Of a stretch of DNA of 39,167 nt, positions 4,684-26,335 are shown in pieces. Source of the stretch: Phycisphaerales bacterium (lineage in GTDB: Bacteria; Planctomycetota; Phycisphaerae; Sedimentisphaerales; Anaerobacaceae); contig DQCG01000609.1 in NCBI GenBank assembly GCA_003533825.1, positions 1 through 39,167 of the forward strand, in the 5' to 3' direction. The notes beneath the pieces are model-generated. The model searched no databases. It was not told where the DNA came from and saw nothing but the letters and a program-made list of their open reading frames with translations. Position 1 is the stretch's first letter. Each line of letters begins with the position of its first letter. Both the position numbers and the translations under genes were made by a program.

Positions 4684-4757
4684 ATTCGTACCGACTGGTA
4701 AGCAACTGATGGCGGAAACACAGGTGATTTACTCGTTACATATTCACATACATAGTC

Positions 4758-7295: not shown

Positions 7296-7940
7296 GTGCC
7301 CCTGATCCATGGAAGAATCTCGCGACTTATGCTCAGACGCAAAGCTGTCGAGTCGAATGCGGTTGTATTGACGTTCGACGATGGTCCCGGCAGTAGATTA
7401 ACTACTGAACTTCTGATTGTACTTGCCGAGAGCAAAGCGAAGGCAACCTTTTTTATGCTTGGCAGAAATATTGCGGGCCGGGAGGTAATTGTCAAACAGA
7501 TCGCACAGCAGGGACATGATATCTGTTCTCATGGTTACGACCATTTACACTCATGGAAGGTCTCGCCGTTTCGTGCCTTGGCGGATATAAGACGCGGATG
7601 GGCGGCGATTGACGCTGCTTTGGGAACGGGGCGGCGAAAGTATCCGTTTCGTCCGCCTAATGGTAAATTAAACATTATTAGTCTGTTGTATTTGATTTTT
7701 TTACAGGTGCCGATTGTCTATTGGTCGATTGATTCGGGGGATACGTGGCGGGACATACCGAACAGCGACAGGATAGCTTTGTTAGTAAAAAAGACAGGGG
7801 GAATGGTGTCTTTAGCCCATGACTTCGATCGTTCTGATGACAGCAGGAGACAATTCGTCATTGAGTCTACCCGCTCGGCCCTTGCGGCGGCCAAAGAAAA
7901 AAATATGCCTGTCCTGACTGTCTCGGAATTATTCAAGTAG
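7296..7940 (+). CDS. polysaccharide deacetylase (NodB homology domain, CE4-like)
   Basis: NodB motifs VLTFDDGP, CSHGYDHLH and FRPPNGK. GTG 7296 is the first canonical start, but the in-frame upstream sequence encodes a TM helix (see findings), so the true start may lie upstream. Confidence 0.85.
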   Translation: MPLIHGRISRLMLRRKAVESNAVVLTFDDGPGSRLTTELLIVLAESKAKATFFMLGRNIAGREVIVKQIAQQGHDICSHGYDHLHSWKVSPFRALADIRRGWAAIDAALGTGRRKYPFRPPNGKLNIISLLYLIFLQVPIVYWSIDSGDTWRDIPNSDRIALLVKKTGGMVSLAHDFDRSDDSRRQFVIESTRSALAAAKEKNMPVLTVSELFK

Positions 7941-8890: not shown

Positions 8891-8951
8891 AAGGGCGCCT
8901 GTGCACAGCAAGACCGGGTGTTGTCTTGAAGTCAAGAGAATAGGGGATGAT

Positions 8952-10613
8952 ATGAAAAATCTATTGCAATCGATGGTAAAAATGAACAGAAGGGGGGCAA
9001 GTGCCATCTCCGCATTTTGCCTGCTGGTGATTCTGTTGTTCTGCCGGTTTACTTATGGCCGGCAGCAAATTGCCCAATTCGGAATTACGTGGACATTCGA
9101 CAAAGATTATACCGTCGGTCAGTTTGCAAACGGCGATTACTGGGTGATTGGGCCGGTAACCATAATAAAGATAGATCCGACTTCCGTTGAGTTAAATGGC
9201 AGGATGATAAACGGTTCTATGATAAATCCATCGCCAAGACTTGGACAAACACAGGGTTACGACAGTGCAATGTATGGAAAATTCGCCAGGCCAGGGAACT
9301 ATGATCCGGGTCTAAATGTTGCTCGTCCTAACGGCCGGGATCTCTCGGAAAGTAATCCTTTGGTTCTTCAGCCTGAGTGTTCTCTGGTTTCTGCCATCAG
9401 CACTGCACGGGCAGAAAGCAGCACAATATTACAGACGGCAGCAATTCTGACCATTCTCGGTAGTTCTGCTCCTGAAGGGAGCTTCAGACCTCCTTACTGT
9501 GGCGCCGATAAGACAATCAGATTCAATATAAGTCAATTGGACTATTCTTTACTTGCCGGCTTAAAACCTGTGCCCGGTGCACCCGGTCTTTCAACGGTTG
9601 AACGCACTTTTGAACGGCCATGGCTGGACCACGTTCCCAATTGGCCGAATAGTTATCTTCATCCGGTCGATAATATGCCCGGCTTCGGCAGGGAATTAGC
9701 CACTGAGATAGGCGTTGGCGCCTTGATGCTTAACCTTAATTTCGAGAACGCCCGTAAAGAAACGCTTCTTATTCGGTACTTACAGTTAGGCATTGATCTT
9801 TATGGAATTATCCAGGACGGGGGAAAAGATAACTGGGTCAATAATGGCGCGCATAACAGCGGGCGCAAGTGGCCGATTCTGTTCGCCGGGCTTATGCTTA
9901 ACGATCCATGCATGAAGAACATCGGGAGACCCGATATTCCGGATTACGGCCCTCTGCACCCGGAGTACGTTCATTTTGGAGAGGATGACCAGACGTTTTA
10001 TGTTTCTCAGGTGGATGTGGATGCGACCCACAGCACACAATGGAATCCGGATAAGAGGGATCCTCAGCGGATTCCGTATGAACAGGAGGATATTGGACTT
10101 CCTGAGTGGGGAATCGTACACGCGATCAGCCCATACAGGAGCAACAAGTTCTGGAATACGGCATATAGAAGGGTAAGTTGTCCATCCTGGGGCGGATTTG
10201 TCTTGGCAGCGCATATCATGGGAGTGAAGGATTTATGGAACCATGATGCTTTGTTTGATTTCAAAGACCGTTATATGCAGGCCGCTACCGATTGGAGACA
10301 GATGTCCAGATTCGTGGAGGCAATGTGGGATACCTACCGAAAAGATTATGATCCCGTGTGGACGATGTCTCCCACGCTAAATGTTGTCGCAGTTGGCGGT
10401 TCCGTCGCAAAGGTCCCGGATAAGGAGGCCTATACGCTTGGCGAGAGAGTGAGGCTGAGAGCTGTCGCCGATCCCGGATACGAGTTTGCAGGTTGGTCGG
10501 GTGGTTTATCCGGGATGGAAAATCCGGTGGCGATAGTGATGCACACTAAACGAACGATCACGGCGAATTTTACCACCGCCTCTAAATATCCGAAGTCGAG
10601 GGGTGGTAAATAA
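8952..10613 (+). CDS. secreted protein with an unrecognised ~450-aa catalytic-size domain and a C-terminal InlB B-repeat-like domain
   Basis: Signal-peptide-like N-terminus (MKNLLQSMVKMNRRGASAISAFCLLVILLFCRFTYG). The C-terminal TLNVVAVGGSVAKVPDKEAYTLGERVRLRAVADPGYEFAGWSGGLSG...TITANF matches the Listeria-Bacteroides/InlB B-repeat pattern. I chose ATG 8952 over the 8862 extension. Confidence 0.7.
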   Translation: MKNLLQSMVKMNRRGASAISAFCLLVILLFCRFTYGRQQIAQFGITWTFDKDYTVGQFANGDYWVIGPVTIIKIDPTSVELNGRMINGSMINPSPRLGQTQGYDSAMYGKFARPGNYDPGLNVARPNGRDLSESNPLVLQPECSLVSAISTARAESSTILQTAAILTILGSSAPEGSFRPPYCGADKTIRFNISQLDYSLLAGLKPVPGAPGLSTVERTFERPWLDHVPNWPNSYLHPVDNMPGFGRELATEIGVGALMLNLNFENARKETLLIRYLQLGIDLYGIIQDGGKDNWVNNGAHNSGRKWPILFAGLMLNDPCMKNIGRPDIPDYGPLHPEYVHFGEDDQTFYVSQVDVDATHSTQWNPDKRDPQRIPYEQEDIGLPEWGIVHAISPYRSNKFWNTAYRRVSCPSWGGFVLAAHIMGVKDLWNHDALFDFKDRYMQAATDWRQMSRFVEAMWDTYRKDYDPVWTMSPTLNVVAVGGSVAKVPDKEAYTLGERVRLRAVADPGYEFAGWSGGLSGMENPVAIVMHTKRTITANFTTASKYPKSRGGK

Positions 10614-11973: not shown

Positions 11974-13317
11974 ATGAGCATTAGAGCAATAGCAAACGGC
12001 GCGGCACATTTGCTCGTTAAGCGATATACCGGGCCGTTCTGGTTGCATAAAAGATGGCTCAACAAAACACAGTGGCTTAGTTATTCGGAATTACAAATAA
12101 TCCAGTTAAAGCTGCTGAGAAAGCTTGTTCGGCATTGTTATAATTCGGTGCCGTACTACAGGCGTTCGATGGATGAATTGGGGATAAGTCCGGAGAGTAT
12201 TCGCACTCTAAAAGACATAGAGAAATTTCCCATAATCAACAAAAAAGAAGTTTTGAAAGCGGGTGATTCAATAATTTCAACAAAATATCCGAGGTGGGCT
12301 TTGCGTAAGGGCCGAACAGGCGGCAGCACAGGCACTCCCATGATCGTATATCGAACCTTGTTCTCGCTGGGGACCGAGCATGCATTCGCAAGGCGGCAGT
12401 GGGATTGGGCGGGAGTAGGCATGAGGGAAAAGAGCGCCTGGATATTTCAAAGAGTGGTTGCGCCGCCGGAGAAGAAGGATGCCCGCCTTTATGATTATGA
12501 CCCGGTCATGAGGGAATTAACGCTCTCGGCTTATCACTGTTCTGCCGATACGGCCCTTGATTATGCCAGGCTGATACAGGAGCACGGCATAAAAGTTGTC
12601 GTGGGTTATCCGAGCGCTATTTACACGATGGCTAAAACTTGCATAAATTCAGGTTTCAAGCTCGACCTTCGCGTGGTTATAAGCACGTGGGAGGCAATGA
12701 CCGAACCTATGCGACAAACTATTTCAGATGCTTTTGGCTGCAAAATCTTCGATTTTTACGGCAGCGGCGAGAGAGTTGTCGCCATTCATAAATGTGAACG
12801 CGGAAGTTATCATATAGTACCTGAATATGGATTGACCGAGCTGATTCCGATGGACGGATGCGAGGGAGGCCATTACAGGGTGGTTTCAACTGGTTTCTGG
12901 AACAAGGCGATGCCTTTAATCAGATACGACATGGGCGACGTTGTCGCCGGGTCGGACGAGAGTTGTTCGTGTGGCAGAAATTTTCCCGTAGTCAAATCAA
13001 TAATCGGCAAAGAAGGTGATATAATACAATCCCCGTCGGGAGTTCAGCTCGGTGTTACCGCGGTGGTGCAAATCCTGTACACTATAGGCGGCACGAATAA
13101 TATACTTGAGACACAATTCATACAGGATGCGCTGGATCATATCACAATAGAATATGTTCCCGGCCGCAAATTCACCGAAGATGATCTTGCGAATATGCGA
13201 AACAGTGCCGCAAGGTTTCTGCCGCGTGACTTGAAAGTCGACTTTGAGCAGGTTGAGGCGGTCAAAAGAACACCGATGGGCAAAATCAGACCTATTGTCT
13301 CCCAAATTGCACGTTAG
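11974..13317 (+). CDS. PaaK/CapK/F390-synthetase-like adenylate-forming ligase
   Basis: GRTGGSTGTPMIVY nucleotide motif, VVGYPSAIYTMAK, FDFYGSGE, and the C-terminal KRTPMGKIRPIV lysine context. The family is common in capsule loci (CapK). Confidence 0.8.
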   Translation: MSIRAIANGAAHLLVKRYTGPFWLHKRWLNKTQWLSYSELQIIQLKLLRKLVRHCYNSVPYYRRSMDELGISPESIRTLKDIEKFPIINKKEVLKAGDSIISTKYPRWALRKGRTGGSTGTPMIVYRTLFSLGTEHAFARRQWDWAGVGMREKSAWIFQRVVAPPEKKDARLYDYDPVMRELTLSAYHCSADTALDYARLIQEHGIKVVVGYPSAIYTMAKTCINSGFKLDLRVVISTWEAMTEPMRQTISDAFGCKIFDFYGSGERVVAIHKCERGSYHIVPEYGLTELIPMDGCEGGHYRVVSTGFWNKAMPLIRYDMGDVVAGSDESCSCGRNFPVVKSIIGKEGDIIQSPSGVQLGVTAVVQILYTIGGTNNILETQFIQDALDHITIEYVPGRKFTEDDLANMRNSAARFLPRDLKVDFEQVEAVKRTPMGKIRPIVSQIAR

Positions 13318-14390: not shown

Positions 14391-15017
14391 ATGGGAAAAA
14401 AAAAGAAAGGCAAGCTGTACAAAACCATAGAGTTCATTACACCCACTTTTGTGAAGGTGATTGTTAAAAGGATATTCTGGAAAATCGTTCGCTTTTACAA
14501 CAGGTGCAGATATATCGAAAAGGGAAGGTTTGTGGAGTTTGGATACAGGTTTAGGTTTGACCGTTCAAGCCCTTACCGTGCTCGCGTTGGTGAGAAGACC
14601 ATCGCCGAGGATTTCAATGTGTGGAACACCGATCTCGGCGACATAACGGTTGGGAAAAATTGCTGGTTTGGGCTTAATAACGTTTTGATGGGTCCGCTTG
14701 AAATTGGTGATCAACTGTCTACCGGCCCGTACGTCAAGATTCTCGGGCCGAGGCACCCGGTTCCGCCGCAGGCTGCCAAGCAAGGTGAGAAGACCACGAT
14801 CGGAAACAACGTGTGGTTAAGTACAGGCTCTATAATTCTTTTCGGGGTTAATATAGGTGATAACGCCATCATAAGCGCCGGTTCGGTGGTCACAAAAGAT
14901 GTTCCCGCCGGAGCTTTTGTCGGGGGCAATCCGGCGAGAAACTTGTCCGGCCTTATTAAAAAGGCCTGGAAATCGACCGATGCGAAACAGCAACAGATGG
15001 CGAGTGACAAGAAATAA
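14391..15017 (+). CDS. hexapeptide-repeat (LbH) acetyltransferase
   Basis: [48 protein letters not shown]. Confidence 0.8.
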
Positions 15018-15108: not shown

Positions 15109-15372
15109 ATGGATAATTCTTCTAAAGTCAGGGAGTTCGTAGTAGAAAATTTTCTTTTCGGAGACGGCGAAAAACTCAGGGATGATACTTCCTTCATGGA
15201 GGAGGGCATCATCGACTCCACCGGGATTCTGGAGCTGGTATTTTTCCTCGAAGAGACTTTCGGTTTTAGTGTCGAGGATGATGAGCTTGTCCCGGAAAAC
15301 ATGGATAGCTTACAGAATATCGCCCGGTTCGTCGGCCGGAAAATGAATGCAGGTTCTACAGCGGAGGCGTAG
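15109..15372 (+). CDS. acyl/peptidyl carrier protein
   Basis: 87 aa and acidic. The phosphopantetheine-attachment context is GIIDSTGILELVFFLEETF, with Ser37 at nt 15217-15219. RBS GAGGG lies upstream. Confidence 0.8.
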   Translation: MDNSSKVREFVVENFLFGDGEKLRDDTSFMEEGIIDSTGILELVFFLEETFGFSVEDDELVPENMDSLQNIARFVGRKMNAGSTAEA

Positions 15373-15424
15373 ATTTCGGACAGAGTTCGAGGATGCTGCT
15401 TTTTTAAAGCATCTGATTTTTATT

Positions 15425-17419
15425 ATGTGTGGAATAGTTGGTATCTGTCATATAGATGGTCCGGACGGTGTGTCCCTGGATGGTATCAAGAGCATGATAG
15501 GTGCTCTCTGCCATCGGGGGCCGGATGAAACGGGCGTCTATCTCGACGATCATGTGGGGCTGGGTCATGCCCGGCTGAGCATCATCGATCTTTCATCCGG
15601 CGGCCAGCCGATCCATAATGAGGACAAGAGCCTCTGGATCGTTTATAACGGAGAAGTTTTCAACTACCCGGAATTGAAAAAGGACCTGCTGCAAAAAGGT
15701 CACCGTTTCTACACGACATCCGATACCGAGGTGGTGCTCCATCTTTACGAAGAGCATGGGCCGGATTGCCTGGCTATGTTGAACGGCCAGTTCGCGATGG
15801 CGATCTGGGATGCGAAGAAAAAGGAGCTGTTCCTTGCTCGGGACAGGGTCGGGATTCGGCCGTTGTATTACACGATTCTCAATAATACCATCATTTTTGG
15901 TTCTGAAATCAAATCGATTTTTATGAACGAGAATGTCGCCCGCCGGATTGATCCGGTGGCGATGGACCAGATTTTCACGTTCTGGACGACACTGACTCCG
16001 AGAACTGTCTTTAAGGATATATATGAACTGCCCCCGGGCCACTATATGAAGAGTTACCGCGGCAAAGTCACATTAAAAAAATACTGGGACATTCCTTTGT
16101 ATGAGCATGCCGAGCAGTCGGATATGGCTCCGCAGGAAATCTGCCGGCAGGTCCGGGAGCTGCTGCAGGACGCAGTCCGAATACGCCTGCGGGCAGATGT
16201 TCCCGTAGGCTGCTACCTCAGCGGCGGGCTCGACTCCTCCGGGACTACTGCTTTGGTGGTGAAGAATTTCAATAGTGACGTCAGGACTTTTGGAATACGT
16301 TTTGACAGCGGCGGTTTTGATGAGGGCGAGCATCAGAATCTAATGGTCTCGTATCTGAACGTTAACCACACTGAAATGCGGGCGACGAATGAAAAAATCG
16401 GGGCTTTCCTGCCGGACTGCTTGTGGCACTGTGAAAAGCCGCTTTTAAGGACCGGGCCCGTTCCGTTATTCCTGCTCTCGGACGTTGTGCGCAACAGCGG
16501 CTATAAGGTGGTGCTGACGGGCGAGGGGGCGGACGAGGTCTTCGGCGGATACAATATCTTTCGCGAGGCCAAGGTCAGAAGGTTCCTGGCGAAGTATCCG
16601 AACTCACAGATGCGGGCAGAGTTAACCGGCAGGCTTTATCCGTATATATTCAACAATCCGAGGCTCAAGCGTACGCTGCAATCATTCTTTGCCAGGGGCC
16701 TTGATCAAATTGATGATCCTATCTTTTCACACTTTATCAGGTGGGAGAATACGAGCAGGATCAAGGCATTCTTTTCGCAAGAGCTAAACGAAGCTATCGG
16801 GCAATACGACGGATATGATCAGGTCAGGCAAAGTCTTCCGGATAATTTTGGGCGGACGGATGATTTTTCCAGGGCACAGTACCTGGAGATGGCGATTTTT
16901 ATGAGCAATTATCTTCTTTCGTCGCAGGGTGACCGGGTCGCCATGGCTCATTCAGTGGAGATAAGACTGCCGTTCCTGGATCCGAGAGTGATGGATTTTA
17001 TGGCGCGGGTGCCTGCAAAATGGAAAATACTGGGCATCAATGAGAAGCACATTCTGAAAAAGTCGTTTGAGCCAATACTGCCGAAAGAAATTACCGGCCG
17101 CCCGAAGAATCCTTACCGCGCCCCGATAAAGCAGAGTCTTCTGAATGACCAGACGCTGGAATATACAAAAGAGGCATTGTCCGAAGAGTCAGTGAAGAAA
17201 GCGGGCCTGTTCGATGCCGGTAAGGTTACAAAGCTGTTGCGAAAAGCTCAGATGGTTGAGAATCTGAGCGAGATCGATAACATGGCCCTTGTGGGAATTT
17301 TATCCTCTCAGCTCATCCATCGTCAGTTTGTCCGGGACTTCCCGTTAAGAAATGCCGATCCCGTTGTTCCCGCTCTTGTAGTGGACAGGAGATCAGAGGC
17401 TTTGAGAGCCGTTAGTTGA
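15425..17419 (+). CDS. asparagine synthetase B-like glutamine amidotransferase (EPS/exosortase-locus type)
   Basis: MCGIVG N-terminal nucleophile (Cys2) fixes the start at ATG 15425. Ntn-glutaminase motifs HRGPD and RLSIIDL. Synthetase-domain PP-loop CYLSGGLDSS. Confidence 0.9.
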   Translation: MCGIVGICHIDGPDGVSLDGIKSMIGALCHRGPDETGVYLDDHVGLGHARLSIIDLSSGGQPIHNEDKSLWIVYNGEVFNYPELKKDLLQKGHRFYTTSDTEVVLHLYEEHGPDCLAMLNGQFAMAIWDAKKKELFLARDRVGIRPLYYTILNNTIIFGSEIKSIFMNENVARRIDPVAMDQIFTFWTTLTPRTVFKDIYELPPGHYMKSYRGKVTLKKYWDIPLYEHAEQSDMAPQEICRQVRELLQDAVRIRLRADVPVGCYLSGGLDSSGTTALVVKNFNSDVRTFGIRFDSGGFDEGEHQNLMVSYLNVNHTEMRATNEKIGAFLPDCLWHCEKPLLRTGPVPLFLLSDVVRNSGYKVVLTGEGADEVFGGYNIFREAKVRRFLAKYPNSQMRAELTGRLYPYIFNNPRLKRTLQSFFARGLDQIDDPIFSHFIRWENTSRIKAFFSQELNEAIGQYDGYDQVRQSLPDNFGRTDDFSRAQYLEMAIFMSNYLLSSQGDRVAMAHSVEIRLPFLDPRVMDFMARVPAKWKILGINEKHILKKSFEPILPKEITGRPKNPYRAPIKQSLLNDQTLEYTKEALSEESVKKAGLFDAGKVTKLLRKAQMVENLSEIDNMALVGILSSQLIHRQFVRDFPLRNADPVVPALVVDRRSEALRAVS

Positions 17420-17482
17420 AGATATACATCCGCGGCTGGTTACCTGAGACTTGCGGCGGCATTCTGTGTTTTGGAGATTTTT

Positions 17483-18445
17483 ATGGAGTTTCACAAGGAT
17501 ATTCTCAAGTGTGACAGCAAAAGTGAGGTTGAACATATTTGCGCGTTCATTCAACAGCAAGTGCGCGCTATGAAACGCGGCGGCATCGTAATCGGACTAA
17601 GCGGCGGTATCGATTCGGCGCTGTGTGCCGCTCTTTGTGTGGAAGCGTTGGGTAAAGACAGGGTATTCGGATTGATTCTTCCCGAGAAGGAGTCCAATCC
17701 AGTAAGTGCCGAATACGCGGCCAAACATGCCCGGGAGCTGGGAATAGAAACAGAGACGGTTGACATTACACCTACGCTCGAAGCTTTTGGGACCTACCGC
17801 AAAAGAGATGAAATGATTAGAAGCGTGTTTCCCGAATACAGCAGTGAGTCCAAATCGAAAATCACTCTTCCGGCCGACTTGCTCTCCAAGGATTCTTTTA
17901 ACTTCTTTACCCTGAAAATCGATGACGGCAAAGGCAATGTGAAATCGGCGAGGCTCAACAAGAAAGCTCTCAATGGAATAGTTGCCGCCACCGATTCCAA
18001 GCAGAGAACAAGGATGATGCATCTCTATTATTATGCCGAAATGAAAAATTACATCGTGTGCGGCACGACCAACAAAACCGAAGTCCTGGAAGGATTCTTT
18101 GTGAAATACGGGGATGGGGGAGTGGATATTGAGCCGCTCAGTCATCTCTATAAAGCCCAGGTGTATCAGCTTTCGGAGCACCTTGGGGTGATTCGCGAAA
18201 TCATAGAGAGAGCGCCGAGCCCCGATACGTGGAGCTTTCAGGTCAGTGACGAGGAATTCTATTTTCGCATCCCCTACGACAAGCTCGATCTTCTGCTTTA
18301 TGCCTGGCAGAACGACGTTCCTGTCGAGCAGGTCTGCGAGACTATGAATCTGGCCGCCGAGCAGGTGAAAAGGGCGATGCGAGATTTTAATGCCAAATAC
18401 AATGCGACCAAACATCTACGGCAGTTGCCGCCGACACTTGAATAA
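17483..18445 (+). CDS. NadE-like (NAD synthetase family) PP-loop ATP pyrophosphatase with no glutaminase domain
   Basis: GGIVIGLSGGIDSALCAALC SGGxDS PP-loop, CGTTNKTEVLEGFFVKYGDGGVDIEPL and YKAQVYQLSEHLGV. The start is ATG 17483 (TTG 17471 also possible). Confidence 0.8.
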   Translation: MEFHKDILKCDSKSEVEHICAFIQQQVRAMKRGGIVIGLSGGIDSALCAALCVEALGKDRVFGLILPEKESNPVSAEYAAKHARELGIETETVDITPTLEAFGTYRKRDEMIRSVFPEYSSESKSKITLPADLLSKDSFNFFTLKIDDGKGNVKSARLNKKALNGIVAATDSKQRTRMMHLYYYAEMKNYIVCGTTNKTEVLEGFFVKYGDGGVDIEPLSHLYKAQVYQLSEHLGVIREIIERAPSPDTWSFQVSDEEFYFRIPYDKLDLLLYAWQNDVPVEQVCETMNLAAEQVKRAMRDFNAKYNATKHLRQLPPTLE

Positions 18446-18506
18446 GATGGTCGGATGAGTCGCAGTTAAAACGAAGGAACTTTTGAATTGGTAAGGATAT
18501 GAATGT

Positions 18507-20111
18507 ATGATCGAATTCGACCCAACATTAGTGCACGAGTGGCTTTCCCGCTCCGCCCGGCGTTTTCCGGACAAGGCTGCCCTTATATGCGGCCGGAAGC
18601 GCTGGACATACAAAACACTTGATCAACGTGCCGGACATCTGGCTGCCGCTTTGATGGATGCGGGAGTTCGCCGCCAGGACAGGATTGTAGTGTTCCTGGA
18701 CAACTCCGCGGAAACCGTAATTTCATTGTACGGGATTCTAAAGGCCGGCGGGATTTTCACCATATTGGCCGGCTCCATGAAGGGGGCAAAGCTACGATAC
18801 ATCCTGGAAAACTCCGGGGCCAGCATTTTGATTGCCCATACGAGCAAAGCCCGGGTTGTACAAGATGCACTGAGTGAAGGAGCCGGAGACTGCAATGTAA
18901 TCTGGGTGGGACCGACGAAACGAATCCCGGAACAACTCTCAGAATCTTCGCAGAGCTGGGATGGGATATTTTCCGATTTTTCCGAGAAAGACGGGGATAA
19001 ATATGATGACAGCCGGCTGCCTCGCTGTGTTGATGTGGATTTGGCCACGCTTATTTATACCTCCGGCTCGACGGGTGAGCCAAAGGGTGTTATGTCCACT
19101 CACCACAACATGATCTCGGCGGCAAGAAGTATCGTTCAGTACATCGGGAACGTCGATGATGATATTATTCTGGATGTGCTGCCTCTGTCGTTCGATTACG
19201 GCCTCTACCAGGTCATCATGGCATTTATGTTTGGCGGCACCGTGGTTCTTGAAAAATCTTTTCTCTATCTTCACAGCGTTCTCGAACGCATCGCCCAGGA
19301 GAAAGTGACCGGATTCCCTATTGTCCCCACAATTGTGGCTATGCTGCTGAAGCTGCAGGATTTGAAAAAATATGATTTCAGCACGCTTCGCTACATGACC
19401 AACACCGGGGCGGCACTTCCGGTAGATCATATCCAGAGGCTCAGAAAAATGTTCCCCCAGGTGACGATGATTTCCATGTTCGGCCTGACCGAGTGCAAGC
19501 GGGTTAGCTATCTGCCGCCGGAAGAGCTGGACCGGATACCGGCGTCGGTCGGCAAGGCGATGCCGAACTGCGAGGTCTTCGTCGTCGATGAAGATGGCCG
19601 CCAGGTCGCCCCGGGCGAAACGGGAGAGCTGATTATAAGAGGCTCGAATGTAATGCAGGGCTACTGGGCGGACCCGGAAATGACCGCCAGGACCTATCGA
19701 GACGGAAAATATCCGAGCGGCAGAATACTCTATTCCGGCGATTATTTCCGCCAGGATGAGCAGGGCTTTCTTTATTTTCTTGGCAGGAAAGATGACATGA
19801 TCAAGAGCAAGGGCGAGCGTATAAGCGCCAAGGAGGTTGAGAATAATATTTCCAGTATGGAGGGCGTCGCGGAGGTGGCGGTTATCGGGGTGCCGGATGA
19901 GATTTTCGGCCAGGCAATTAAGGCGTATATTGTGCCGGCCCCGGGCGTCGAGCTGGCCGAAAAGCAGGTATTGAAATACTGTGCCGCGAATATGGAAACT
20001 TTCATGGTGCCGAAATACATCGAGTTCCTCGACAGCCTGCCCAAGACACCGAACGGGAAAATCGACAAGAAACAGCTCAAAGCTAAGCAGCAGCCAAGCA
20101 TTACAAGCTGA
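18507..20111 (+). CDS. AMP-forming acyl-CoA/acyl-ACP ligase (ANL superfamily)
   Basis: A3 motif LIYTSGSTGEPKGV, FGLTE, YSGDYF..DEQGFLYFLGRKDDMIKSKGERIS, and the terminal PKTPNGKIDKK lysine. Confidence 0.9.
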   Translation: MIEFDPTLVHEWLSRSARRFPDKAALICGRKRWTYKTLDQRAGHLAAALMDAGVRRQDRIVVFLDNSAETVISLYGILKAGGIFTILAGSMKGAKLRYILENSGASILIAHTSKARVVQDALSEGAGDCNVIWVGPTKRIPEQLSESSQSWDGIFSDFSEKDGDKYDDSRLPRCVDVDLATLIYTSGSTGEPKGVMSTHHNMISAARSIVQYIGNVDDDIILDVLPLSFDYGLYQVIMAFMFGGTVVLEKSFLYLHSVLERIAQEKVTGFPIVPTIVAMLLKLQDLKKYDFSTLRYMTNTGAALPVDHIQRLRKMFPQVTMISMFGLTECKRVSYLPPEELDRIPASVGKAMPNCEVFVVDEDGRQVAPGETGELIIRGSNVMQGYWADPEMTARTYRDGKYPSGRILYSGDYFRQDEQGFLYFLGRKDDMIKSKGERISAKEVENNISSMEGVAEVAVIGVPDEIFGQAIKAYIVPAPGVELAEKQVLKYCAANMETFMVPKYIEFLDSLPKTPNGKIDKKQLKAKQQPSITS

Positions 20112-20134
20112 AGAGAGACACTTTCAAAAGTCAC

Positions 20135-21385
20135 ATGGCAAGCGGAATCGAATTATCTAAAGATATGAATTTGTACGAATCCTACGGGCGATTCATCAGC
20201 TCCTCATATCCCCCGTTTTTGAACAAGCTGGGATTGAACAAAGTCGCGGTCAAAGCTCAGGGAGCCACTATTACCGATTCGGACGGCAAGACTTACATCG
20301 ATTGCGTCGGCGGTTACGGCCTGTTTAACCTGGGGCACAATAATCCGGAGATAATCGAATCCCTTACCCACCAGTTGAAAGAGCAGCAGTTATTCACAAA
20401 ACCTCTTATCAGTGAAATTCAGGTCAGGATGGCGGAGCTTATCGCGAAAATTGCGCCCGGTGACCTGGAGTGTTCATTTATCCTGAACAGCGGCTCTGAA
20501 GCTATAGACTGCGCTATCAAGTTGGCGAGGCTCCACAGGGGCGGAAAAACAATTATAACAGCTCAAAAATCTTTTCACGGCCATACATTTGGTGCACTTA
20601 CGGCATCCGGCATTCCTTCCTTCAAGAGAGCCTTCCAGCCGCTTCTGCCGGGCTTTATAAGTGTTCCGTTCGGCGATATCGAGGCGCTCGAGCGATCCAT
20701 ATCGCTGGAAACCGGGGCAGTGCTGATAGAGCCGATTCAGCATGAGGCGGGGATTTTCCTGCCGCCGGACGGCTATCTTCAAAAGGTGCGCAAACTGTGT
20801 GACGAGCACAACCTGATAATGATTTTGGATGAGATAAAAACCGGCTTCGGCAAAACAGGCCGCATGTTCGCATGTGAACATTATAATGTAGTGCCGGATA
20901 TACTCGTTCTTGGCAAATCCCTGGGCGGCGGATTGATTCCAACCGGGGCGGTTGTAGCCAAAAGTCATCTTTGGAAGAGATTCGGATTAAGTTTTGCAAT
21001 GTCGGCGTCATCTTACGCCGGCAATGTGCTTGCCTGCCGGGCGGGTATATCAGCAATCCGGTATATCCAGCGAGTAAATCTGCCGGCAGACTGTGCGGAA
21101 AAGGGAAAGATGCTTCTTCGTTCGTTCAGAGATTACGTCGCAGAATATCCGGATATTCTGCGGTCTGCCGATGGTTTGGGTCTTTTGATTGGAATAGAAA
21201 CTCAAAGCCCCAGGATAGCGCTCGAACTGGCGGTAGAAATGATTCGGCGGGGCGTTATACTGGTTCCGGCTTTTGGCAGTTCATCCGTCCTGATGGTTGA
21301 GCCGCCGTTAGTCATATCTTTTAAGCAAATTCGGGCGGTTGTAGATTCGTTTGCGGCCGCATGTGTTAAAGTTAACGGTACTTAA
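20135..21385 (+). CDS. class-III PLP-dependent aminotransferase (acetylornithine/putrescine aminotransferase-like)
   Basis: NSGSEAIDCAIKLAR, ILDEIKTGFGKTGRMFA and DILVLGKSLGGG (Schiff-base lysine context). Confidence 0.9.
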   Translation: MASGIELSKDMNLYESYGRFISSSYPPFLNKLGLNKVAVKAQGATITDSDGKTYIDCVGGYGLFNLGHNNPEIIESLTHQLKEQQLFTKPLISEIQVRMAELIAKIAPGDLECSFILNSGSEAIDCAIKLARLHRGGKTIITAQKSFHGHTFGALTASGIPSFKRAFQPLLPGFISVPFGDIEALERSISLETGAVLIEPIQHEAGIFLPPDGYLQKVRKLCDEHNLIMILDEIKTGFGKTGRMFACEHYNVVPDILVLGKSLGGGLIPTGAVVAKSHLWKRFGLSFAMSASSYAGNVLACRAGISAIRYIQRVNLPADCAEKGKMLLRSFRDYVAEYPDILRSADGLGLLIGIETQSPRIALELAVEMIRRGVILVPAFGSSSVLMVEPPLVISFKQIRAVVDSFAAACVKVNGT

Positions 21386-21406
21386 AAAAGAGTAGGTGGT
21401 AATTAT

Positions 21407-22402
21407 ATGCAGACGTGTAAAAAATGTGTGTTAAACGAACGTTTTATCGGGATCCGGTTTGATGAAGAGGGCGTCTGTAATTTTTGCCGCTCGGCAAAAA
21501 ATCCGGATCAGCAGCGCTCTATCAGGGGCAAATATGAAGCCAAATTCCAGAAACTTATCGAGCAGAACAAAGGCAAAGGAAGTTACGATTGCCTGGTGGC
21601 CTACAGCGGTGGCAAGGACAGCACGTATACCCTCCACCTGTTACAGGAGCGATATGATCTGAGGCTCCTGGCGTATTCCTTCGACAACTGGTTTCAATCG
21701 GACAGGGCCAGGTGCAACATCCGTGCTGTCCTGAGCAATATTAACGTGGACCATTTAACTGTGATGCCAAGTTTCGAGGGCATGAAAAAGATTGTTCTGG
21801 CCTCCATGTCCGGCGATTTGTACCCGGCCAAGGCAATGGCACGGGCGTCAAGTATATGCACGAGCTGTATTTCTCTGATACGATTTATCGGTTTCAGGCT
21901 TACAATCGAGCAGGAAATTCCCTTTCTTATATTCGGGATGTCACCCGGTCAGGCGCCGATGGCTACGGCGGTAGTCAAGACAAATCCCCGGATGATAAGA
22001 ACGATGCAGGAAGCGCTGCTGCGTCCTCTGTCCGATCTATTGGGCGATATTATCAAGCCGTTCTTCCTGGAGCAGCGACACTTTGACAAGGTCGAACATT
22101 TTCCGTACAGCATCAATCCGCTGGCGTTTGCAGATTACGATGAGGATGTGATTTACAAGACTGCGGACAAATATGGTTGGAAAAAGCCCGATGACACGGA
22201 CGCCAACTCTACCAACTGTCTCTTGAATGCCCTGGCTAACCAGGTCCACCTGGATCAGTTCGGCGTCAATCCTTATGCTTATGAGATAGCCGAGCTGGTT
22301 CGCACCGGGTGCATGACGAGAGAAGAAGGTCTGGCCAGGCTGGCGGAACCTTTCCCGGCTGAGCAAATTGCAGCGGTGAAGAACAAGCTCGGAATCGACT
22401 GA
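21407..22402 (+). CDS. N-acetyl sugar amidotransferase (WbuX/WbpG/PseA-like PP-loop enzyme)
   Basis: N-terminal zinc-ribbon CKKCVLNERFIGIRFDEEGVCNFC, followed by the PP-loop VAYSGGKDSTY. Length and layout are typical of the family. Confidence 0.8.
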   Translation: MQTCKKCVLNERFIGIRFDEEGVCNFCRSAKNPDQQRSIRGKYEAKFQKLIEQNKGKGSYDCLVAYSGGKDSTYTLHLLQERYDLRLLAYSFDNWFQSDRARCNIRAVLSNINVDHLTVMPSFEGMKKIVLASMSGDLYPAKAMARASSICTSCISLIRFIGFRLTIEQEIPFLIFGMSPGQAPMATAVVKTNPRMIRTMQEALLRPLSDLLGDIIKPFFLEQRHFDKVEHFPYSINPLAFADYDEDVIYKTADKYGWKKPDDTDANSTNCLLNALANQVHLDQFGVNPYAYEIAELVRTGCMTREEGLARLAEPFPAEQIAAVKNKLGID

Positions 22403-22410
22403 TTCATTAC

Positions 22411-23280
22411 ATGAAAATCAGGACCATTTATATCTTCATAGCTGTGGTATGCGTATTGGCTCCTGGAATTATGATGATGGTTGTGACAAGAATAGAAACA
22501 AGGACAGACGTAAATAAAATAACGCTGCCCTCGATTGACGATGTCTCGGGAGAATCCTGGGCGAAACTTGCCGGCAAGAAGATTTTCTTCGGACATCAAT
22601 CGGTCGGATACAACATCATCGATGGAATATCGGATGTCATGAACGAACGTGACTGCATAAAACTCAACGTCCTTGAATCACACAAACCCGCGGTATTTGA
22701 CCAACCCGTTCTTGCTCATTCGCAGGTCGGAAGAAACACGGATCCCATCTCGAAGATCGAAAGCTTCGTGGATATTATGGATGCCGGCGCGGGCCGCAAG
22801 GTCGATATGGCATTTTTCAAGTTTTGTTATGTTGACATTATGCGGGATTCGGATCCGCAAAAAATATTCGATGCTTACAGCGCCGCGATTGAGGATCTAA
22901 AAGAGCGATATGCTGAAACAAGATTCATACACGTAACCGTCCCCCTGCGCTCAGCTCCAAAAGGGGCCGGGAAAAACCTGAAACAATCCGTCAAGTTGTT
23001 GATCGGCAGGCCGGGCGTTCTGGATGATAATATGATGCGCCAGCGTTATAACAAGTTGTTAAGGGACGCTTACTCTAAAACGGAGCCTTTCTTCGACTTG
23101 GCCCTGATAGAATCGATCAATCCGGACGGTTTTAGATGTTATGCCGTCAAGGGTGCGGAAAAAGTCGATTTCATGGCGTCCGAATACACCGAAGATGGCG
23201 GACATCTCAATGCCGAGGGCAGAAAAAAGATAGCCGAAAAAATACTTATAATTCTCGCTGAAACAGCGAACAGCATATAG
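22411..23280 (+). CDS. membrane-anchored SGNH/GDSL-like hydrolase-fold protein (putative O-acyl esterase/transfer partner)
   Basis: N-terminal anchor IRTIYIFIAVVCVLAPGIMMMVV. Block-I-like FFGHQSVGYN and block-V-like EDGGHLNAEG (DxxH). The assignment is tentative. Confidence 0.55.
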   Translation: MKIRTIYIFIAVVCVLAPGIMMMVVTRIETRTDVNKITLPSIDDVSGESWAKLAGKKIFFGHQSVGYNIIDGISDVMNERDCIKLNVLESHKPAVFDQPVLAHSQVGRNTDPISKIESFVDIMDAGAGRKVDMAFFKFCYVDIMRDSDPQKIFDAYSAAIEDLKERYAETRFIHVTVPLRSAPKGAGKNLKQSVKLLIGRPGVLDDNMMRQRYNKLLRDAYSKTEPFFDLALIESINPDGFRCYAVKGAEKVDFMASEYTEDGGHLNAEGRKKIAEKILIILAETANSI

Positions 23281-23328: not shown

Positions 23329-24342
23329 GTGAATTTACTTACCGGTAAAAATACAGTAGGAATGCTATTGAGCTCGATTCTTAGAGTCAAACCAGCGGTT
23401 GCCTCCGGGAAAGCCCGGATAGCAAATATAGAACGACTGCGTATTTTATCTGCGTTCGGTGTCGCCTCCTTTCATATCCATGATTGGTTTCCGCGAAGCC
23501 TTGGCGTGGTTGGCTTTATTGTCTTTTTGCTGACTTTCTGTATATTTGTCGTGAATAAGCCAGAGCCGTATGCAATGGCCCATCTGATAAAGCAAAAGTC
23601 CGGGCGTCTGCTGAAACCGTGGCTGTTTTGGTCGGGTATATATGGCTTGCTTAAACTGCTAAAGATAGTGTACATGAACGTGTCGTTTTCGGAAGTTTTT
23701 TCTCCGACGATGATTTTGACCGGCACTCGAATACATCTCTGGTTTCTGCCTTTCGCTTTCTTTGCAGCTCTGCTCCTTGCATTAATACATCGAAGAATAG
23801 TAAATGTTTCTAAGTCATTAACTATAATAACTGCAATTCTAATCGGAGTTGTCTGTGTACTTGTCTGTTCAATTATCCAGTCCCGGATTCAGCCGCCCAA
23901 GCCGCTGACACAATGGACTTTAGGTTTGCCGGCAATACCTCTGGGTTTCGCTATTGGTCGAATTACACTTTTGCGAAAAGCTGAAGAAAGGCGAAATATG
24001 TACCTGGTTATAGTTTTTTCAACGACGGTGGCGTGTGCATTATTTGCCTGGCTGGGCAATGGCACCTGGATGGGCTATGGCAGTACGTTTGCGATTCGAT
24101 ATTGTGTATCTTTGGCAATAGTCTGTTCTGCTTTGCATTGGAAGGGGAACTTCGGACCGATTTCGAGCAAGTTAGCATCTTTATCTTATGGAATTTATCT
24201 TATCCATCCCCTGGTAGTGGGTCCCTTTTATCAATTTGGAATAGCTATACAGCATCCGTTGATTTTGCTGTTTATAGTGCTGTTTATTTCCTTACTGATA
24301 ACGTTTATTCTTAGTAAAACACCGTTGAGGCAGTTTGTTTGA
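23329..24342 (+). CDS. acyltransferase family 3 (AT3) integral membrane O-acyltransferase
   Basis: GTG start. NIERLRILSAFGVASFHI (conserved AT3 R...H motif), about 10 hydrophobic helices, and C-terminal LSYGIYLIHPLV. Confidence 0.8.
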   Translation: MNLLTGKNTVGMLLSSILRVKPAVASGKARIANIERLRILSAFGVASFHIHDWFPRSLGVVGFIVFLLTFCIFVVNKPEPYAMAHLIKQKSGRLLKPWLFWSGIYGLLKLLKIVYMNVSFSEVFSPTMILTGTRIHLWFLPFAFFAALLLALIHRRIVNVSKSLTIITAILIGVVCVLVCSIIQSRIQPPKPLTQWTLGLPAIPLGFAIGRITLLRKAEERRNMYLVIVFSTTVACALFAWLGNGTWMGYGSTFAIRYCVSLAIVCSALHWKGNFGPISSKLASLSYGIYLIHPLVVGPFYQFGIAIQHPLILLFIVLFISLLITFILSKTPLRQFV

Positions 24343-24367: not shown

Positions 24368-26335
24368 ATGCAGAATATCAAAGCTGTTATACTTGTAGGC
24401 AATAGCGACTTCGGACGGTGTCCGCTGGCGTCACGCTTGCCGCCGGCTTTGTGGCCGGTGGCGGGAAAACCTGCGCTGGAACGCCTGCTGAACCATTTGG
24501 CCGATCAGGGTATAAAGCAGGCGGTTGTTTGTGGCGGAGGTGCCGCTTTTTTACTGGCTAAAACGATTCTCACCGATGATCGTTTGGATATGGATTTTTT
24601 CGATGAATCGTTGCCGGTGGGTACCGCAGGTTGTATTCGCGGAGGTGTGAGCGAGCAAACCGATGAATTACTCCTGGTATTTCCCGCCGGTATATTATGT
24701 CCGCCGGAAGTAGATGTGCTGATGAAGGTGCACCGTGATGGCCGATCTGATGTAACTGTGATGTTGAATCCCACTTACGGAGACGATATATATTCGGAGC
24801 AGGCGTCCGGAATATATGTCTGCAATCCGTGCATCCTGGAACATATACCAAAGGCCGGTTATTTTGATATTAAGGAAGGCTTAATTCCTGAAATGCTCCG
24901 GGTCGGAAGGACAGTTCATGCAGCAAGGTTACCGAATCACGCCGGGAATTTTCGGAATCGGCAAGAATACTTATTTGCAATTTCCGATTACCTTGAAAAT
25001 GTCCCAAAACTGAATGCGGATTTGAAGCTCCTGAAAAGTTCCGATTCCGAAAATGTGTGGTTGGCGGCGAATGCCAGGGTGGACCTTCAGGCAAGAGTTG
25101 ATGGACCGGCTATTATTATGGACGGCGCAACAGTATCAAGCGGAGCAGTTGTTCTCGGGCCGGCTATCCTTGGAAAAAACGCTGCTATCGGCAAAGACAG
25201 CGTTGTAACGAATGGTGTGCTGTGGGACGGCGTACAAGTGGGCTCAAATTGCCTGATCAGGAAATGCGTTATCGACTTTCATGCATCTGTTCAAGATAAT
25301 ACTGTTGTGGAGGAGAAGTCCATACCATTTAAACCGGAGGGGATGTTGAGGCGTGCGGTCAGTCTTGCCTCTGAGGTTGCAAAAAATAACGCGGACAAAT
25401 TGCAGAGGGTATTACAACCACTTGACAAAATTTACGAAATATTGCCGGATTGGACCTGGTTGAGCAGAAAGAGTATTATTGCACTCCTCGGATCCGGCCT
25501 TGTTTTAATAGTTTTTCTCTGGTCTTACTGGTCCGGCCTTGGGGAGCTTTGGAGTTTGTTGCTGAGAAGTGATGAATATTCAGCCGGCCTGTTTGTTCCT
25601 TTTCTAAGTGTTTATATCTTGTGGTCAAGGCGACATGATATTGCTCAGTGCCCCGTTAAGCCTTCTATCTGGGGGCTGTTTGCCTTCATGGCGGCCCAGG
25701 CGATAAGACTTTTAGGGTTGTTCCTTATGTACAGTTCAGCGGAAAGATTATCTATCATCCTGAGCATTGCCGCATTGGTATTGCTGTTGTTTGGCTGGCA
25801 GCTTTTCCGGAAGGTATCTACGATATTATTGTTCCTGTGTTTAATGCTGCCTTTGCCTAACATGTTGCAGTACTTCATCGGGTTGCGCCTGCAAAACTGG
25901 GCCACTTCATCGGCGGTGTTCTGCCTTGAAATAATCGGATACGAGGTTATCCAGGAAGGCAATATAATTAATATTGGCAATGCGAGCGTTGCTGTAGTTG
26001 AAGCTTGTAACGGCTTAAGGATGATTACAGCTTTTTTTGTGATTACCGGGCTGGTTGTCCTGCTGGTCAAGCGGAAATGGTGGGAAAAGCTTATAATTCT
26101 GGCATCCAGCCTGCCCATCGCCTTACTTTGTAACACCATACGATTGGCAATTACAGCCGTGTTTTTCACAGTTCTTGAGGGTGAGTATTGGGAAAAAATA
26201 TTCCACGACTTTGGCGGGTATGCAATGATGCCATTGGCTCTTGCTGTGGTGGTTGGTGAGCTTTGGCTTTTGGCAAAACTGACTGTGCTTCCGGAAACGG
26301 AAGAAGCAATAATAATTACACGACAGAGGGGATGA
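24368..26335 (+). CDS. fusion protein: N-terminal nucleotidyltransferase-like + LbH module, C-terminal exosortase (EpsH/Xrt family)
   Basis: Exosortase part (about nt 25450-26335): SDEYSAGLFVPFLSVYILWSRR, VEACNGLRM (Cys547, nt 26006-26008), CNTIRLA (Arg592, nt 26141-26143) and FHDFGGY (His613, nt 26204-26206). N-terminal part: KAVILVG...WPVAGKPALERLLNHL and the LbH turns VVLGPAILGKNAAIGKDSVVTNGVLWDGVQVGSNCLIRKCVI. Confidence 0.85.
   Translation: MQNIKAVILVGNSDFGRCPLASRLPPALWPVAGKPALERLLNHLADQGIKQAVVCGGGAAFLLAKTILTDDRLDMDFFDESLPVGTAGCIRGGVSEQTDELLLVFPAGILCPPEVDVLMKVHRDGRSDVTVMLNPTYGDDIYSEQASGIYVCNPCILEHIPKAGYFDIKEGLIPEMLRVGRTVHAARLPNHAGNFRNRQEYLFAISDYLENVPKLNADLKLLKSSDSENVWLAANARVDLQARVDGPAIIMDGATVSSGAVVLGPAILGKNAAIGKDSVVTNGVLWDGVQVGSNCLIRKCVIDFHASVQDNTVVEEKSIPFKPEGMLRRAVSLASEVAKNNADKLQRVLQPLDKIYEILPDWTWLSRKSIIALLGSGLVLIVFLWSYWSGLGELWSLLLRSDEYSAGLFVPFLSVYILWSRRHDIAQCPVKPSIWGLFAFMAAQAIRLLGLFLMYSSAERLSIILSIAALVLLLFGWQLFRKVSTILLFLCLMLPLPNMLQYFIGLRLQNWATSSAVFCLEIIGYEVIQEGNIINIGNASVAVVEACNGLRMITAFFVITGLVVLLVKRKWWEKLIILASSLPIALLCNTIRLAITAVFFTVLEGEYWEKIFHDFGGYAMMPLALAVVVGELWLLAKLTVLPETEEAIIITRQRG

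Follow-up and report, generated by a model that had tools for sequence, protein, structure and literature searches.

A carrier-protein cassette and its conserved core

The window, as we call the whole 39,167-nt stretch of Phycisphaerales contig DQCG01000609.1 (assembly GCA_003533825.1) analyzed here, is, according to its list of open reading frames (ORFs) and to profile searches, one long plus-strand exosortase/exopolysaccharide (EPS) operon for a secreted polysaccharide. Within it, six consecutive plus-strand genes, separated by gaps of only 8–61 nt, encode an acyl carrier protein (ACP), an AsnB-like and a NadE-like amidotransferase, a stand-alone ANL ligase, a class-III pyridoxal phosphate (PLP) aminotransferase and a WbuX-like PP-loop enzyme related to the N-acetyl sugar amidotransferases (NASATs) (Table 1). 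We report that four parts of this cassette, the ACP, the stand-alone ligase, one carboxylate amidotransferase (AsnB-like or NadE-like) and the NASAT-like enzyme, form a conserved unit, which turns up in over 30 loci spread across some ten phyla. A first-pass annotation, made from the letters and translations of the window, had described, within an exosortase/EPS locus, an ACP-centered cassette in which adenylating enzymes abound. Our searches support that description: the six ORFs lie where it had placed them, and their motifs and profile matches lead to the same families. Its count of five adenylating enzymes also stands, since the PaaK/CapK-like ligase encoded upstream of the cassette is real.

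We scanned an alignment of the WbuX-like protein against one genome per species, which yielded 80 loci, and then mapped all window proteins onto them. The loci span Planctomycetota, Desulfobacterota, Chloroflexota, Omnitrophota, Zixibacteria, Krumholzibacteriota, Nitrospirota and two archaeal orders. Neighbors were counted within 6 kb in the 38 loci whose WbuX-like gene is flanked by 5 kb or more in each direction, and the clustering of the cassette families there is far beyond chance. The ligase gene lies near the WbuX-like gene in 36 of the 38 and an ACP gene in at least 33, with an ACP match just beyond the 6-kb limit in three further loci of the window type. An AsnB-like enzyme is the only amidotransferase of the two in 21 loci and a NadE-like enzyme in 15; the two occur together in a single locus, which belongs to the window's own clade.

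The expectation that the six-gene order would be conserved as a block did not survive this survey. The full order is kept only in the close relatives L001, L005 and L006, the NadE-like gene is missing from L003 and L007, the order is rearranged in L002, and what recurs more widely is the four-part core. The ACP gene, 3.1 kb upstream of the ligase gene in the window, adjoins it in most other loci. The aminotransferase, confined to the Planctomycetota clade plus L011 and L012 and always encoded directly upstream of the NASAT-like gene, is a lineage-specific accessory addition. The PaaK/CapK-like ligase occurs in L005, L002, L010, L044 and L080 only and falls outside the core. Recognizable polysaccharide genes lie near the core in 25 of the 38 loci and an exosortase gene in 10; because the other 28 have no exosortase, and because rhizobial copies exist too, the core is not exosortase-specific. 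Its parts belong to known families. Not previously described are their conserved combination, the predicted substrate logic and the three-cysteine clade of NASAT-like enzymes presented below; looking in the literature for XrtW, and for AsnB, NadE and ACP in combination, we met no account of this set of genes.

Two kinds of extra gene were seen at the core in individual loci. In L003, which has no NadE-like gene, the ACP and AsnB-like genes are separated by one for a DUF362 protein of 421 aa (3690–4955); a 454-aa member of the same sequence cluster is encoded next to the core in L028 (12978–14342). A HemK/PrmC-type (MTS) methyltransferase is encoded beside or near the NadE-like or NASAT-like gene in L002 (10994–11893), L058 (9094–9954), L080 (9053–9907) and L086 (15704–16429). 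Enzymes of the HemK/PrmC family N-methylate glutamine side-chain amides, an activity that fits a carboxamide product; the recurrence of the gene hints that the new amide or amidine may be N-methylated.

Table 1. Genes of the cassette, followed by other features of the window discussed in the text
Feature	Position	Strand	Evidence and remarks
ACP	15109-15372	+	87 aa; PF00550 21.7 bits (cut-off 20.8); Ser37 in IIDSTG
AsnB-type Gln-dependent carboxylate amidotransferase	15425-17419	+	TIGR01536 511.4 bits (cut-off 267); Cys2 glutaminase domain; PP-loop SGGLDSS
NadE-like NH3-dependent PP-loop amidotransferase	17471/17483-18445	+	NF002048 412.9 bits (cut-off 313); SGGIDSA
Stand-alone ANL ligase	18507-20111	+	PF00501 and PF13193; YTSGSTGEPKG
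Class-III PLP aminotransferase (putrescine-aminotransferase-like)	20135-21385	+	PF00202 290.8 bits; NF008570 394.8 bits, below cut-off of 612
WbuX/NASAT-like PP-loop enzyme	21407-22402	+	Zn ribbon C4/C7/C24/C27; SGGKDS 67-72; extra C151/C154/C271
PaaK/CapK-like adenylate-forming enzyme	11974-13317	+	NF045666 and PaaK-family matches, all below cut-off
SGNH/GDSL-like membrane-anchored protein	22411-23280	+	PF00657 24.3 bits (cut-off 23.6); FFGHQS and DGGH; candidate for periplasmic acyl transfer
Acyl_transf_3 integral-membrane acyltransferase	23329-24342	+	PF01757 80.2 bits; conserved in L001 and L005
Hexapeptide-repeat (LbH) acyl/acetyltransferase	14391-15017	+	PF00132; NeuD/PglB/VioB and maltose O-acetyltransferase matches
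FemAB/VimA-like GNAT (Acetyltransf_6)	5198-6460	+	PF13480 89.8 bits; candidate ACP-to-amino-sugar transferase
Polysaccharide deacetylase	7296-7940	+	NodB/PdaB-type matches; weak match to TIGR03006 (XrtA-system deacetylase)
Exosortase fused to N-terminal nucleotidyltransferase and LbH domain	24368-26335	+	655 aa; PF09721 181 bits; TIGR02602 136.2 bits (cut-off 105.55)
Putative sorted protein	36979-37638	+	219 aa; tail VIPAPGAILLSSIGVCLVGWLRRRKTL (read from translation), PEP-CTERM-like with PAP for PEP; no profile match

Two start sites differ from the listed ORFs. The ORF of the AsnB-like enzyme opens at 15347, but its TIGR01536 match begins only at residue 27, so we place the start at ATG 15425 (MCGIVG, with Cys2). 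The NadE-like ORF opens at TTG 17471; its start is probably ATG 17483, because the L001 ortholog has 320 aa. Among NCBIfam models the ACP matches ACP_for_OlsHI best, far below its cut-off, and its match to DltC is weak (E = 5e-4). In the Protein Data Bank (PDB) the aminotransferase best matches E. coli putrescine aminotransferase (340 bits) and chain 4ppm; we take the lysine in its motif GKSLGGG to be the Schiff-base lysine, as in its class generally. In a scan of 10.5–27 kb for promoters and terminators, counts stayed within shuffle expectation and gave no operon boundaries. A minus-strand antisense ORF of 272 aa (17597–18415) spans the NadE-like gene, and an equivalent ORF is open in other loci. 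An apparent conserved neighbor of 388 aa (cluster c46), with translated matches in 26 loci and the window, was rejected as this antisense ORF, an artifact of greedy ORF picking; it is a trap for gene callers and no gene.

Pocket residues, amidotransferases and a three-cysteine clade

Searched against solved structures, the full-length ligase matches adenylation domains of nonribosomal peptide synthetases (NRPSs) best, and its pocket segment matches VinN (3wv4/3wvn) at 82 bits, the next match reaching 51 bits. VinN and FlvN load 3-methyl-aspartate or aspartate through the side-chain carboxyl onto a stand-alone ACP, and the PLP enzyme VinO then decarboxylates the free carboxyl of the tethered unit. 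In VinN, D230 binds the β-amino group, F231 and S299 push the β-amino acid toward a shortened β13-β14 loop, and K330 and R331 are the key residues of that loop (PMC11253843). The alignment of the window ligase with VinN is gap-free at the three key motifs: SWDFGLYKV, with D230 and F231, corresponds to SFDYGLYQV; FTNSAAALP, with S299, to MTNTGAALP; and MYGQTECKRISIMPP, with K330, R331 and the shortened loop, to MFGLTECKRVSYLPP, which includes TECKRVS. The window ligase has every VinN-type feature, namely Asp at 230, a bulky residue at 231, Ser or Thr at 299, Lys and Arg at 330 and 331, and the shortened loop, where a MAFFT alignment places a two-residue gap relative to a GrsA fragment.

Two types of ligase occur across the related loci. 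Type A, found in the window and in rhizobia, keeps all VinN features and is conserved across phyla. Type B (FYYSYGNS...TEAS-ARLSY) is without the amine-binding Asp and keeps the Arg; it may load a dicarboxylic acid that has no amino group. It replaces or accompanies type A in L016, L036, L039, L060, L065, L078 and others. Every ligase variant examined, even where the amine-binding Asp is missing, retains the Arg that corresponds to VinN R331. What stays constant is therefore a residue fit to bind a distal carboxylate, and that carboxylate would be the natural target for an amidotransferase. We think it fairly likely, judging by the pocket, that the ligase takes an acid of the aspartate type. 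The product would then probably be a β-aspartyl-ACP whose free carboxylate is amidated where VinO decarboxylates. With a pocket of the VinN type, the amino group probably arrives with the substrate, and the aminotransferase need not supply it.

The Cys2 glutaminase domain of the AsnB-like enzyme is intact, and a PP-loop is present. Its closest solved structure is 7ylz, a "hydroxyamidotransferase" according to its depositors, which we take to be the trichostatin enzyme TsnB9, a protein of AsnB fold whose substrate is a carboxylic acid different from aspartate. The NadE-like enzyme scores above the cut-off for NAD synthase, but its genomic context argues against a housekeeping role. Since the two enzymes take the same place in different genomes, we infer that both turn one kind of carboxylate into a carboxamide, the AsnB-like enzyme presumably with nitrogen from glutamine and the NadE-like enzyme with ammonia.

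For the WbuX-like protein, the first-pass label of "WbuX/PseA-like amidotransferase" holds in part. NASATs are marked by a PP-loop SGGxDS and a tetracysteine motif CXXCXn[GN]XCXXC (PMC10607449), and the window protein has these elements (S67GGKDS72, C4, C7, G22, C24, C27) as well as the fold: its AlphaFold model (pLDDT 92) finds LpNASAT (8wex) as its best match (TM 0.69–0.71), followed by the [4Fe-4S] enzymes TtuA, NcsA and LarE and by YcfA, with a TM of ~0.4 to TtuA. By sequence, it matches the Zn-ribbon NASAT with E = 6e-18 as against ~0.03 for TtuA, and its central and C-terminal half matches no PDB sequence, not even 8wex. The protein nevertheless reaches only 152.8 bits on TIGR03573, below the cut-off of 203.2; a distant homolog in L060 also stays below it (150.1 bits). 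The PP-loop and seven cysteines, the three extra ones included, are invariant in 73 of 73 homologs (~43–92% identity), and G22 is present in 71 of the 73. Two annotated true NASATs are without the extra cysteines; one of them, from Spirosoma, is encoded beside hisH and HisF2, and profile searches matched no window protein to the HisH or HisF family.

Plasmid-borne relatives place this enzyme among thiotemplated systems. In a Bacillus thuringiensis plasmid cluster, a copy 37% identical to the window protein stands in the order ACP, NASAT-like enzyme, two ANL ligases, two carrier proteins, ketosynthases and AsnB. This cluster (L089, strain HD1002, NZ_CP009349.1, 7843–18963) is PKS/FAS-like and also encodes a hydrolase, a thioesterase, FabZ and FabG; its NASAT-like protein is annotated as QueC. 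On a Roseovarius pelagicus plasmid (L090, 6415–14463) the NASAT-like domain lies inside an NRPS of 2,682 aa, beside flippase and CMP-sugar genes, and on a plasmid of Streptomyces sp. NBC_01216 (L092, 4196–10888) a condensation domain is fused to it, within an asnB-NRPS-racemase cluster. All three copies keep the extra cysteines. These features place the WbuX-like enzyme in a distinct three-Cys clade that is related to NASAT and has carrier-protein partners. Given the NRPS-embedded copies, which are gene fusions, and the lack of HisH/HisF partners, the clade probably acts on a carrier-tethered unit. Its product could be an amidine, by homology, a thioamide, by analogy of the cysteines, or a nitrile as in QueC.

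A translated plasmid search traced ligase homologs (46–47% identity) to megaplasmids in Sinorhizobium, Ensifer, Mesorhizobium and Azospirillum. According to the annotated context, the asnB-ACP-ligase-nadE genes of S. meliloti and Mesorhizobium form a compact operon that no sugar genes adjoin. Its four proteins are 43–55% identical to those of the window (55% for the S. meliloti ACP), and the S. meliloti ligase keeps the pocket motifs FDYGLYQ and TECKR. An operon of this kind, free of sugar genes, speaks for joint action of the amidotransferases with the ACP and ligase. Roseateles carries the same set near glycosyltransferase genes, and Azospirillum thermophilum amid genes for glycosyltransferases, a deacetylase and a GNAT. 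The NadE-like type is present on 117 plasmid records and adjoins the ligase in every record that lists both positions. The 2009 work of Ramos-Vega reportedly gave asnB, ACP, ligase and nadE as the composition of the S. meliloti operon. From the published description, our rhizobial operon is probably that of smb20650/smb20651 on pSymB: the genes for the ligase SMb20650 and the ACP SMb20651 are cotranscribed, their coexpression yields acylated ACP, and SMb20650 neither replaces FadD, giving no fadD complementation, nor lowers free fatty acids (PMC7232532). The function of the two genes was still listed as unknown in 2017.

Neighboring genes and a proposed route

Downstream of the cassette, the SGNH-like protein has homologs in 14 loci, encoded directly downstream of the NASAT-like gene in about nine. 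We considered a DltABCD-like model, in which ligase, ACP, membrane acyltransferase and SGNH protein would esterify the polymer. It was not adopted, because profile searches found no MBOAT among the window proteins, which have the Acyl_transf_3 and SGNH pair instead, and because the genes of this pair are not in the conserved core. Upstream, the LbH acetyltransferase gene directly precedes the ACP gene, in the same place as in L001, L005 and L006; in L003 the gene directly upstream of the ACP gene also encodes a hexapeptide-repeat protein by Pfam. Deacetylase genes recur beside the core in other loci, and the window's deacetylase is a candidate, by analogy, for a VimE-like role in exposing a sugar amine. 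The window further encodes a Wzy-like protein, several glycosyltransferases, an Alg14/Alg13-type pair, acetyltransferases, a Wzc-like tyrosine kinase, a phosphoglycosyltransferase, a PrsT-like TPR protein and a LuxR-type regulator. The domains of three of its proteins were noted: the priming phosphoglycosyltransferase (Bac_transf, 29014–30732) carries an LbH/hexapeptide domain N-terminal to its catalytic domain, a 640-aa protein (1296–3218) has a recognized domain only at its N terminus, a methyltransferase, and a 583-aa protein (8862–10613) has one only at its C terminus, a Flg_new_2 (InlB B-repeat-like) domain.

The window exosortase passes only the general exosortase model; it scores 138.2 bits on XrtA, against a cut-off of 208, and is below cut-off for XrtD and XrtW as well. 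Its fusion to a nucleotidyltransferase and LbH domain is conserved in L001 and L005–L008. In several Desulfobacterota and Nitrospirota loci, the exosortase is XrtW, above its curated cut-off, and these loci carry DegT, LbH, deacetylase, FemAB-like and glycosyltransferase genes beside the core. The putative sorted protein ends in VIPAPG, a hydrophobic stretch and RRRK. Upstream of it, an ORF at 35866–36768, which starts in the lowest-GC kilobase of the window (0.34, 35001–36000), holds a similar internal motif, SLPPAPKTLLMVLVGFLCVSLVKDRR, followed by ~190 more residues, and may reflect a frameshift or read-through.

The cassette had been likened to the gene set associated with exosortase A, and the likeness goes as far as the top profile matches. 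TIGR03098 is the best NCBIfam match of the ligase (484.9 bits; cut-off 592.35) and TIGR03108 the second best of the AsnB-like enzyme (461 bits; cut-off 816.9); the ligases of XrtW-linked loci also stay below the TIGR03098 cut-off, at 391–500 bits. No window protein matched the TIGR03099 PLP decarboxylase or the two hydrolase families. A search among ligase homologs for true TIGR03098 members returned only homologs at least 72% identical, the named ones all from Planctomycetota, and plasmid searches returned no ligase named for exosortase A. Since every curated cut-off is missed, the cassette is related to this set and not a member of it.

On pocket residues and gene context, our preferred reading, which we hold tentatively, is that a thiotemplated module builds a small nitrogen-rich acyl unit on the carrier for the exosortase-linked polysaccharide. 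The ligase would adenylate L-aspartate or a close amino-dicarboxylate at the side-chain carboxyl and load it onto the ACP, leaving the amine and α-carboxylate free, a step with good sequence support. The AsnB-like enzyme, the NadE-like enzyme or both would then turn the free carboxylate into a carboxamide, in the place of VinO decarboxylation; this step may correspond to the decarboxylase of the exosortase-A-associated set. The 3-Cys NASAT-like enzyme would activate a carbonyl of the tethered unit in a further ATP-dependent reaction, turning an amide into an amidine if homology is a guide, or giving a thioamide or nitrile. Transfer to the polymer, a weakly supported step, would most likely be N-acylation of a de-N-acetylated amino sugar by way of the deacetylase and the FemAB-like GNAT; alternatively, the Acyl_transf_3 and SGNH pair could acylate outside the cytoplasm. 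The class-III aminotransferase, a clade-specific accessory, may make the amine acceptor or remodel the unit. It had been proposed that an aminotransferase and two extra PP-loop enzymes replace the decarboxylase and hydrolases; carboxylate amidation, and not the aminotransferase, is the better candidate for the place of the decarboxylase. The earlier prediction of a carrier-tethered, aminated and amidated substituent remains, in its tethered and amidated parts, the best reading of the comparative data, with the amine probably coming from the substrate.

Several points weigh against amidation on the carrier. The window and the rhizobia hold both an AsnB-like and a NadE-like enzyme, and a single free carboxylate needs only one; having the two together could mean redundancy in nitrogen source or a second amidation site. 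FemAB-like or GNAT neighbors stand beside the core in only nine of the 38 loci (a GNAT is also present in Azospirillum), and the off-loading enzyme is a guess. SMb20651 was reportedly C12/C18-acylated in E. coli (Ramos-Vega's 2009 study), which would not suit an aspartate substrate. Finally, the known AsnB-like (WbpS, PGN_1234) and NASAT (WbpG, WbuX) enzymes act on sugars. This last point favors the main rival to on-carrier amidation, convergent and independent sugar tailoring: each enzyme would act on a nucleotide- or lipid-linked sugar, turning uronic acid into uronamide and acetamido into acetamidino groups, while the ACP and ligase would only supply an (amino)acyl donor for the FemAB-like GNAT, and the product would be a linking sugar of the Wbp/Vim kind. 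The window's own Acetyltransf_6 GNAT and deacetylase, the gene content of the XrtW loci and the polysaccharide-type neighbors in 25 of the 38 loci all suit such a scheme, as does the remark by Veith et al. on VimA-like, deacetylase and AsnB genes in exosortase loci. Profile searches, however, found no UDP-sugar dehydrogenase or DegT-type aminotransferase in the window, and near the core UGDH occurs in only 4 and DegT in only 2 of the 38 loci. The Sinorhizobium and Mesorhizobium operons have no adjacent sugar genes, and the NASAT-like clade, without HisH/HisF partners, is embedded in NRPSs. We regard independent sugar tailoring as rather unlikely, though it is the alternative to be taken most seriously.

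Less probable again, in our judgment, is that the 3-Cys enzyme inserts sulfur with the help of an Fe-S cluster into the carrier-bound unit, as CtaC does, to give a thioamide or thiocarboxylate. Invariant Cys 151, 154 and 271 are spaced from the PP-loop almost as the cluster ligands of CtaC are, the fold matches that follow NASAT are TtuA, NcsA, LarE and YcfA, the hosts are apparently mostly anaerobes, judged by taxon names, and carrier proteins take the place of an ammonia-delivering HisH/HisF partner. Yet NASAT is much the closer relative by both sequence and fold, the local Cys motifs are unlike those of CtaC, the three cysteines could bind a second structural Zn, and no sulfur-carrier gene was recognized in the window. 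Improbable above all is a lipidation module, in which the ligase would load a fatty or other hydrophobic acid onto the ACP to acylate a polysaccharide primer or the anchor of sorted proteins, the amidotransferases being unrelated. The reported C12/C18 forms of SMb20651 would agree with it, and the best profile match of the ACP is the ornithine-lipid ACP, although below its cut-off. SMb20651 is indeed acylated on coexpression with SMb20650, but SMb20650 gave no fadD complementation and no drop in free fatty acids (PMC7232532). Moreover, Asp, Lys and Arg at the VinN pocket positions suit a charged amino-dicarboxylate, and a lipidation module leaves the tight and widespread linkage to amidotransferases unexplained.

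At its boldest, on-carrier amidation can be extended to a picture that we consider a long shot: the quartet would be a phylum-spanning thiotemplated pathway, an Fe-S insertase would make a thioamide or comparably unusual C=X group on a carrier-bound aspartyl amide, and in exosortase loci the amine-bearing substituent on the polysaccharide would be the exosortase acceptor for PEP-CTERM proteins. That the substituent serves as acceptor is speculation, by analogy with the aminoacylated linking sugar of type IX secretion (T9SS).

Exosortase systems are widespread, and for their ACP, ligase and amidotransferase genes this work offers a concrete prediction, an amidated β-aspartyl-ACP. The prediction is tied to a model organism, S. 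meliloti, probably through the smb20650/51 operon. It comes with the definition of a 3-Cys NASAT-like clade with carrier-protein partners and NRPS fusions, whose members are now annotated as QueC, TilS or "N-acetyl sugar amidotransferase". If on-carrier amidation is true, the cassette would make a new kind of amide, amidine or thioamide decoration on bacterial polysaccharides by a new thiotemplated tailoring step.

Comparison with known systems

The exosortase-A-associated set (TIGR03098 ligase, ACP, TIGR03099 decarboxylase, hydrolases and TIGR03108 amidotransferase) shares with the window an ACP, an ANL ligase and an AsnB-like gene beside an exosortase gene in an EPS locus. The window differs in having no decarboxylase or hydrolases, an exosortase that is not XrtA, and additional genes for a NadE-like enzyme, a NASAT-like enzyme and an aminotransferase. 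In S. meliloti, the asnB-ACP-ligase-nadE operon has the same four families, tightly linked and with the pocket motifs kept, but is without the NASAT-like gene, aminotransferase and exosortase and, like that of Mesorhizobium, has no adjacent EPS genes.

In Porphyromonas gingivalis, the VimE/VimA/AsnB route leads to an aminoacylated and amidated linking sugar, 2-N-seryl-3-N-acetylglucuronamide, which is the acceptor for the T9SS sortase PorU, its free amine accepting the cargo protein (Veith et al.). The same authors noted VimA-like, deacetylase and AsnB genes in exosortase loci and speculated on a role similar to that of the T9SS linking sugar. Like the Wbp/Vim pathway, the window has a deacetylase, a FemAB/VimA-like GNAT and an AsnB-like gene in a locus with a C-terminal sorting transpeptidase; unlike it, the window holds no Wbp-type dehydrogenase or DegT gene, and the P. 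gingivalis route uses neither ACP nor ligase. For the exosortase of this or any such locus, protein attachment is a supposition.

With the NASATs (WbuX, WbpG, PseA, LpNASAT 8WEX) the 3-Cys enzyme shares the PP-loop SGGKDS, the zinc ribbon and its best fold match; it differs in scoring below the TIGR03573 cut-off, in its three extra invariant cysteines, and in having ACP/ANL partners or NRPS fusions in place of HisH/HisF. CtaC, which thioamidates carrier-bound amides in closthioamide synthesis in an Fe-S-dependent manner (cluster ligands 154, 157 and 284; PP-loop D77/S78), is likewise a PP-loop enzyme with three cysteines at almost the same spacing from the PP-loop, and its homologs are mostly encoded beside thiotemplated enzymes in anaerobes. 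It belongs to the TtcA/TtuA clade, and the surroundings of its cysteines (LCFFCGR and SSGCKLG, known from mutagenesis primers only) differ from those of the window protein. Because these primer-derived motifs differ, we rejected orthology and regard CtaC as an analog only.

The closest parallel for the ligase is VinN with VinL and VinO of the vicenistatin system, and FlvN of fluvirucin, with which the window shares a stand-alone adenylating enzyme and ACP, the pocket residues and the short loop. In the window, the follow-up enzymes are ATP-dependent amidotransferases and a NASAT-like enzyme instead of a PLP decarboxylase; a second aminoacylation, an acyltransferase and a polyketide synthase, as in the vicenistatin route, are lacking, and the genes lie in a polysaccharide/exosortase operon instead of a macrolactam cluster. 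The proposed logic is nonetheless alike: as VinO does, the next enzyme would act on the free carboxylate of the tethered unit.

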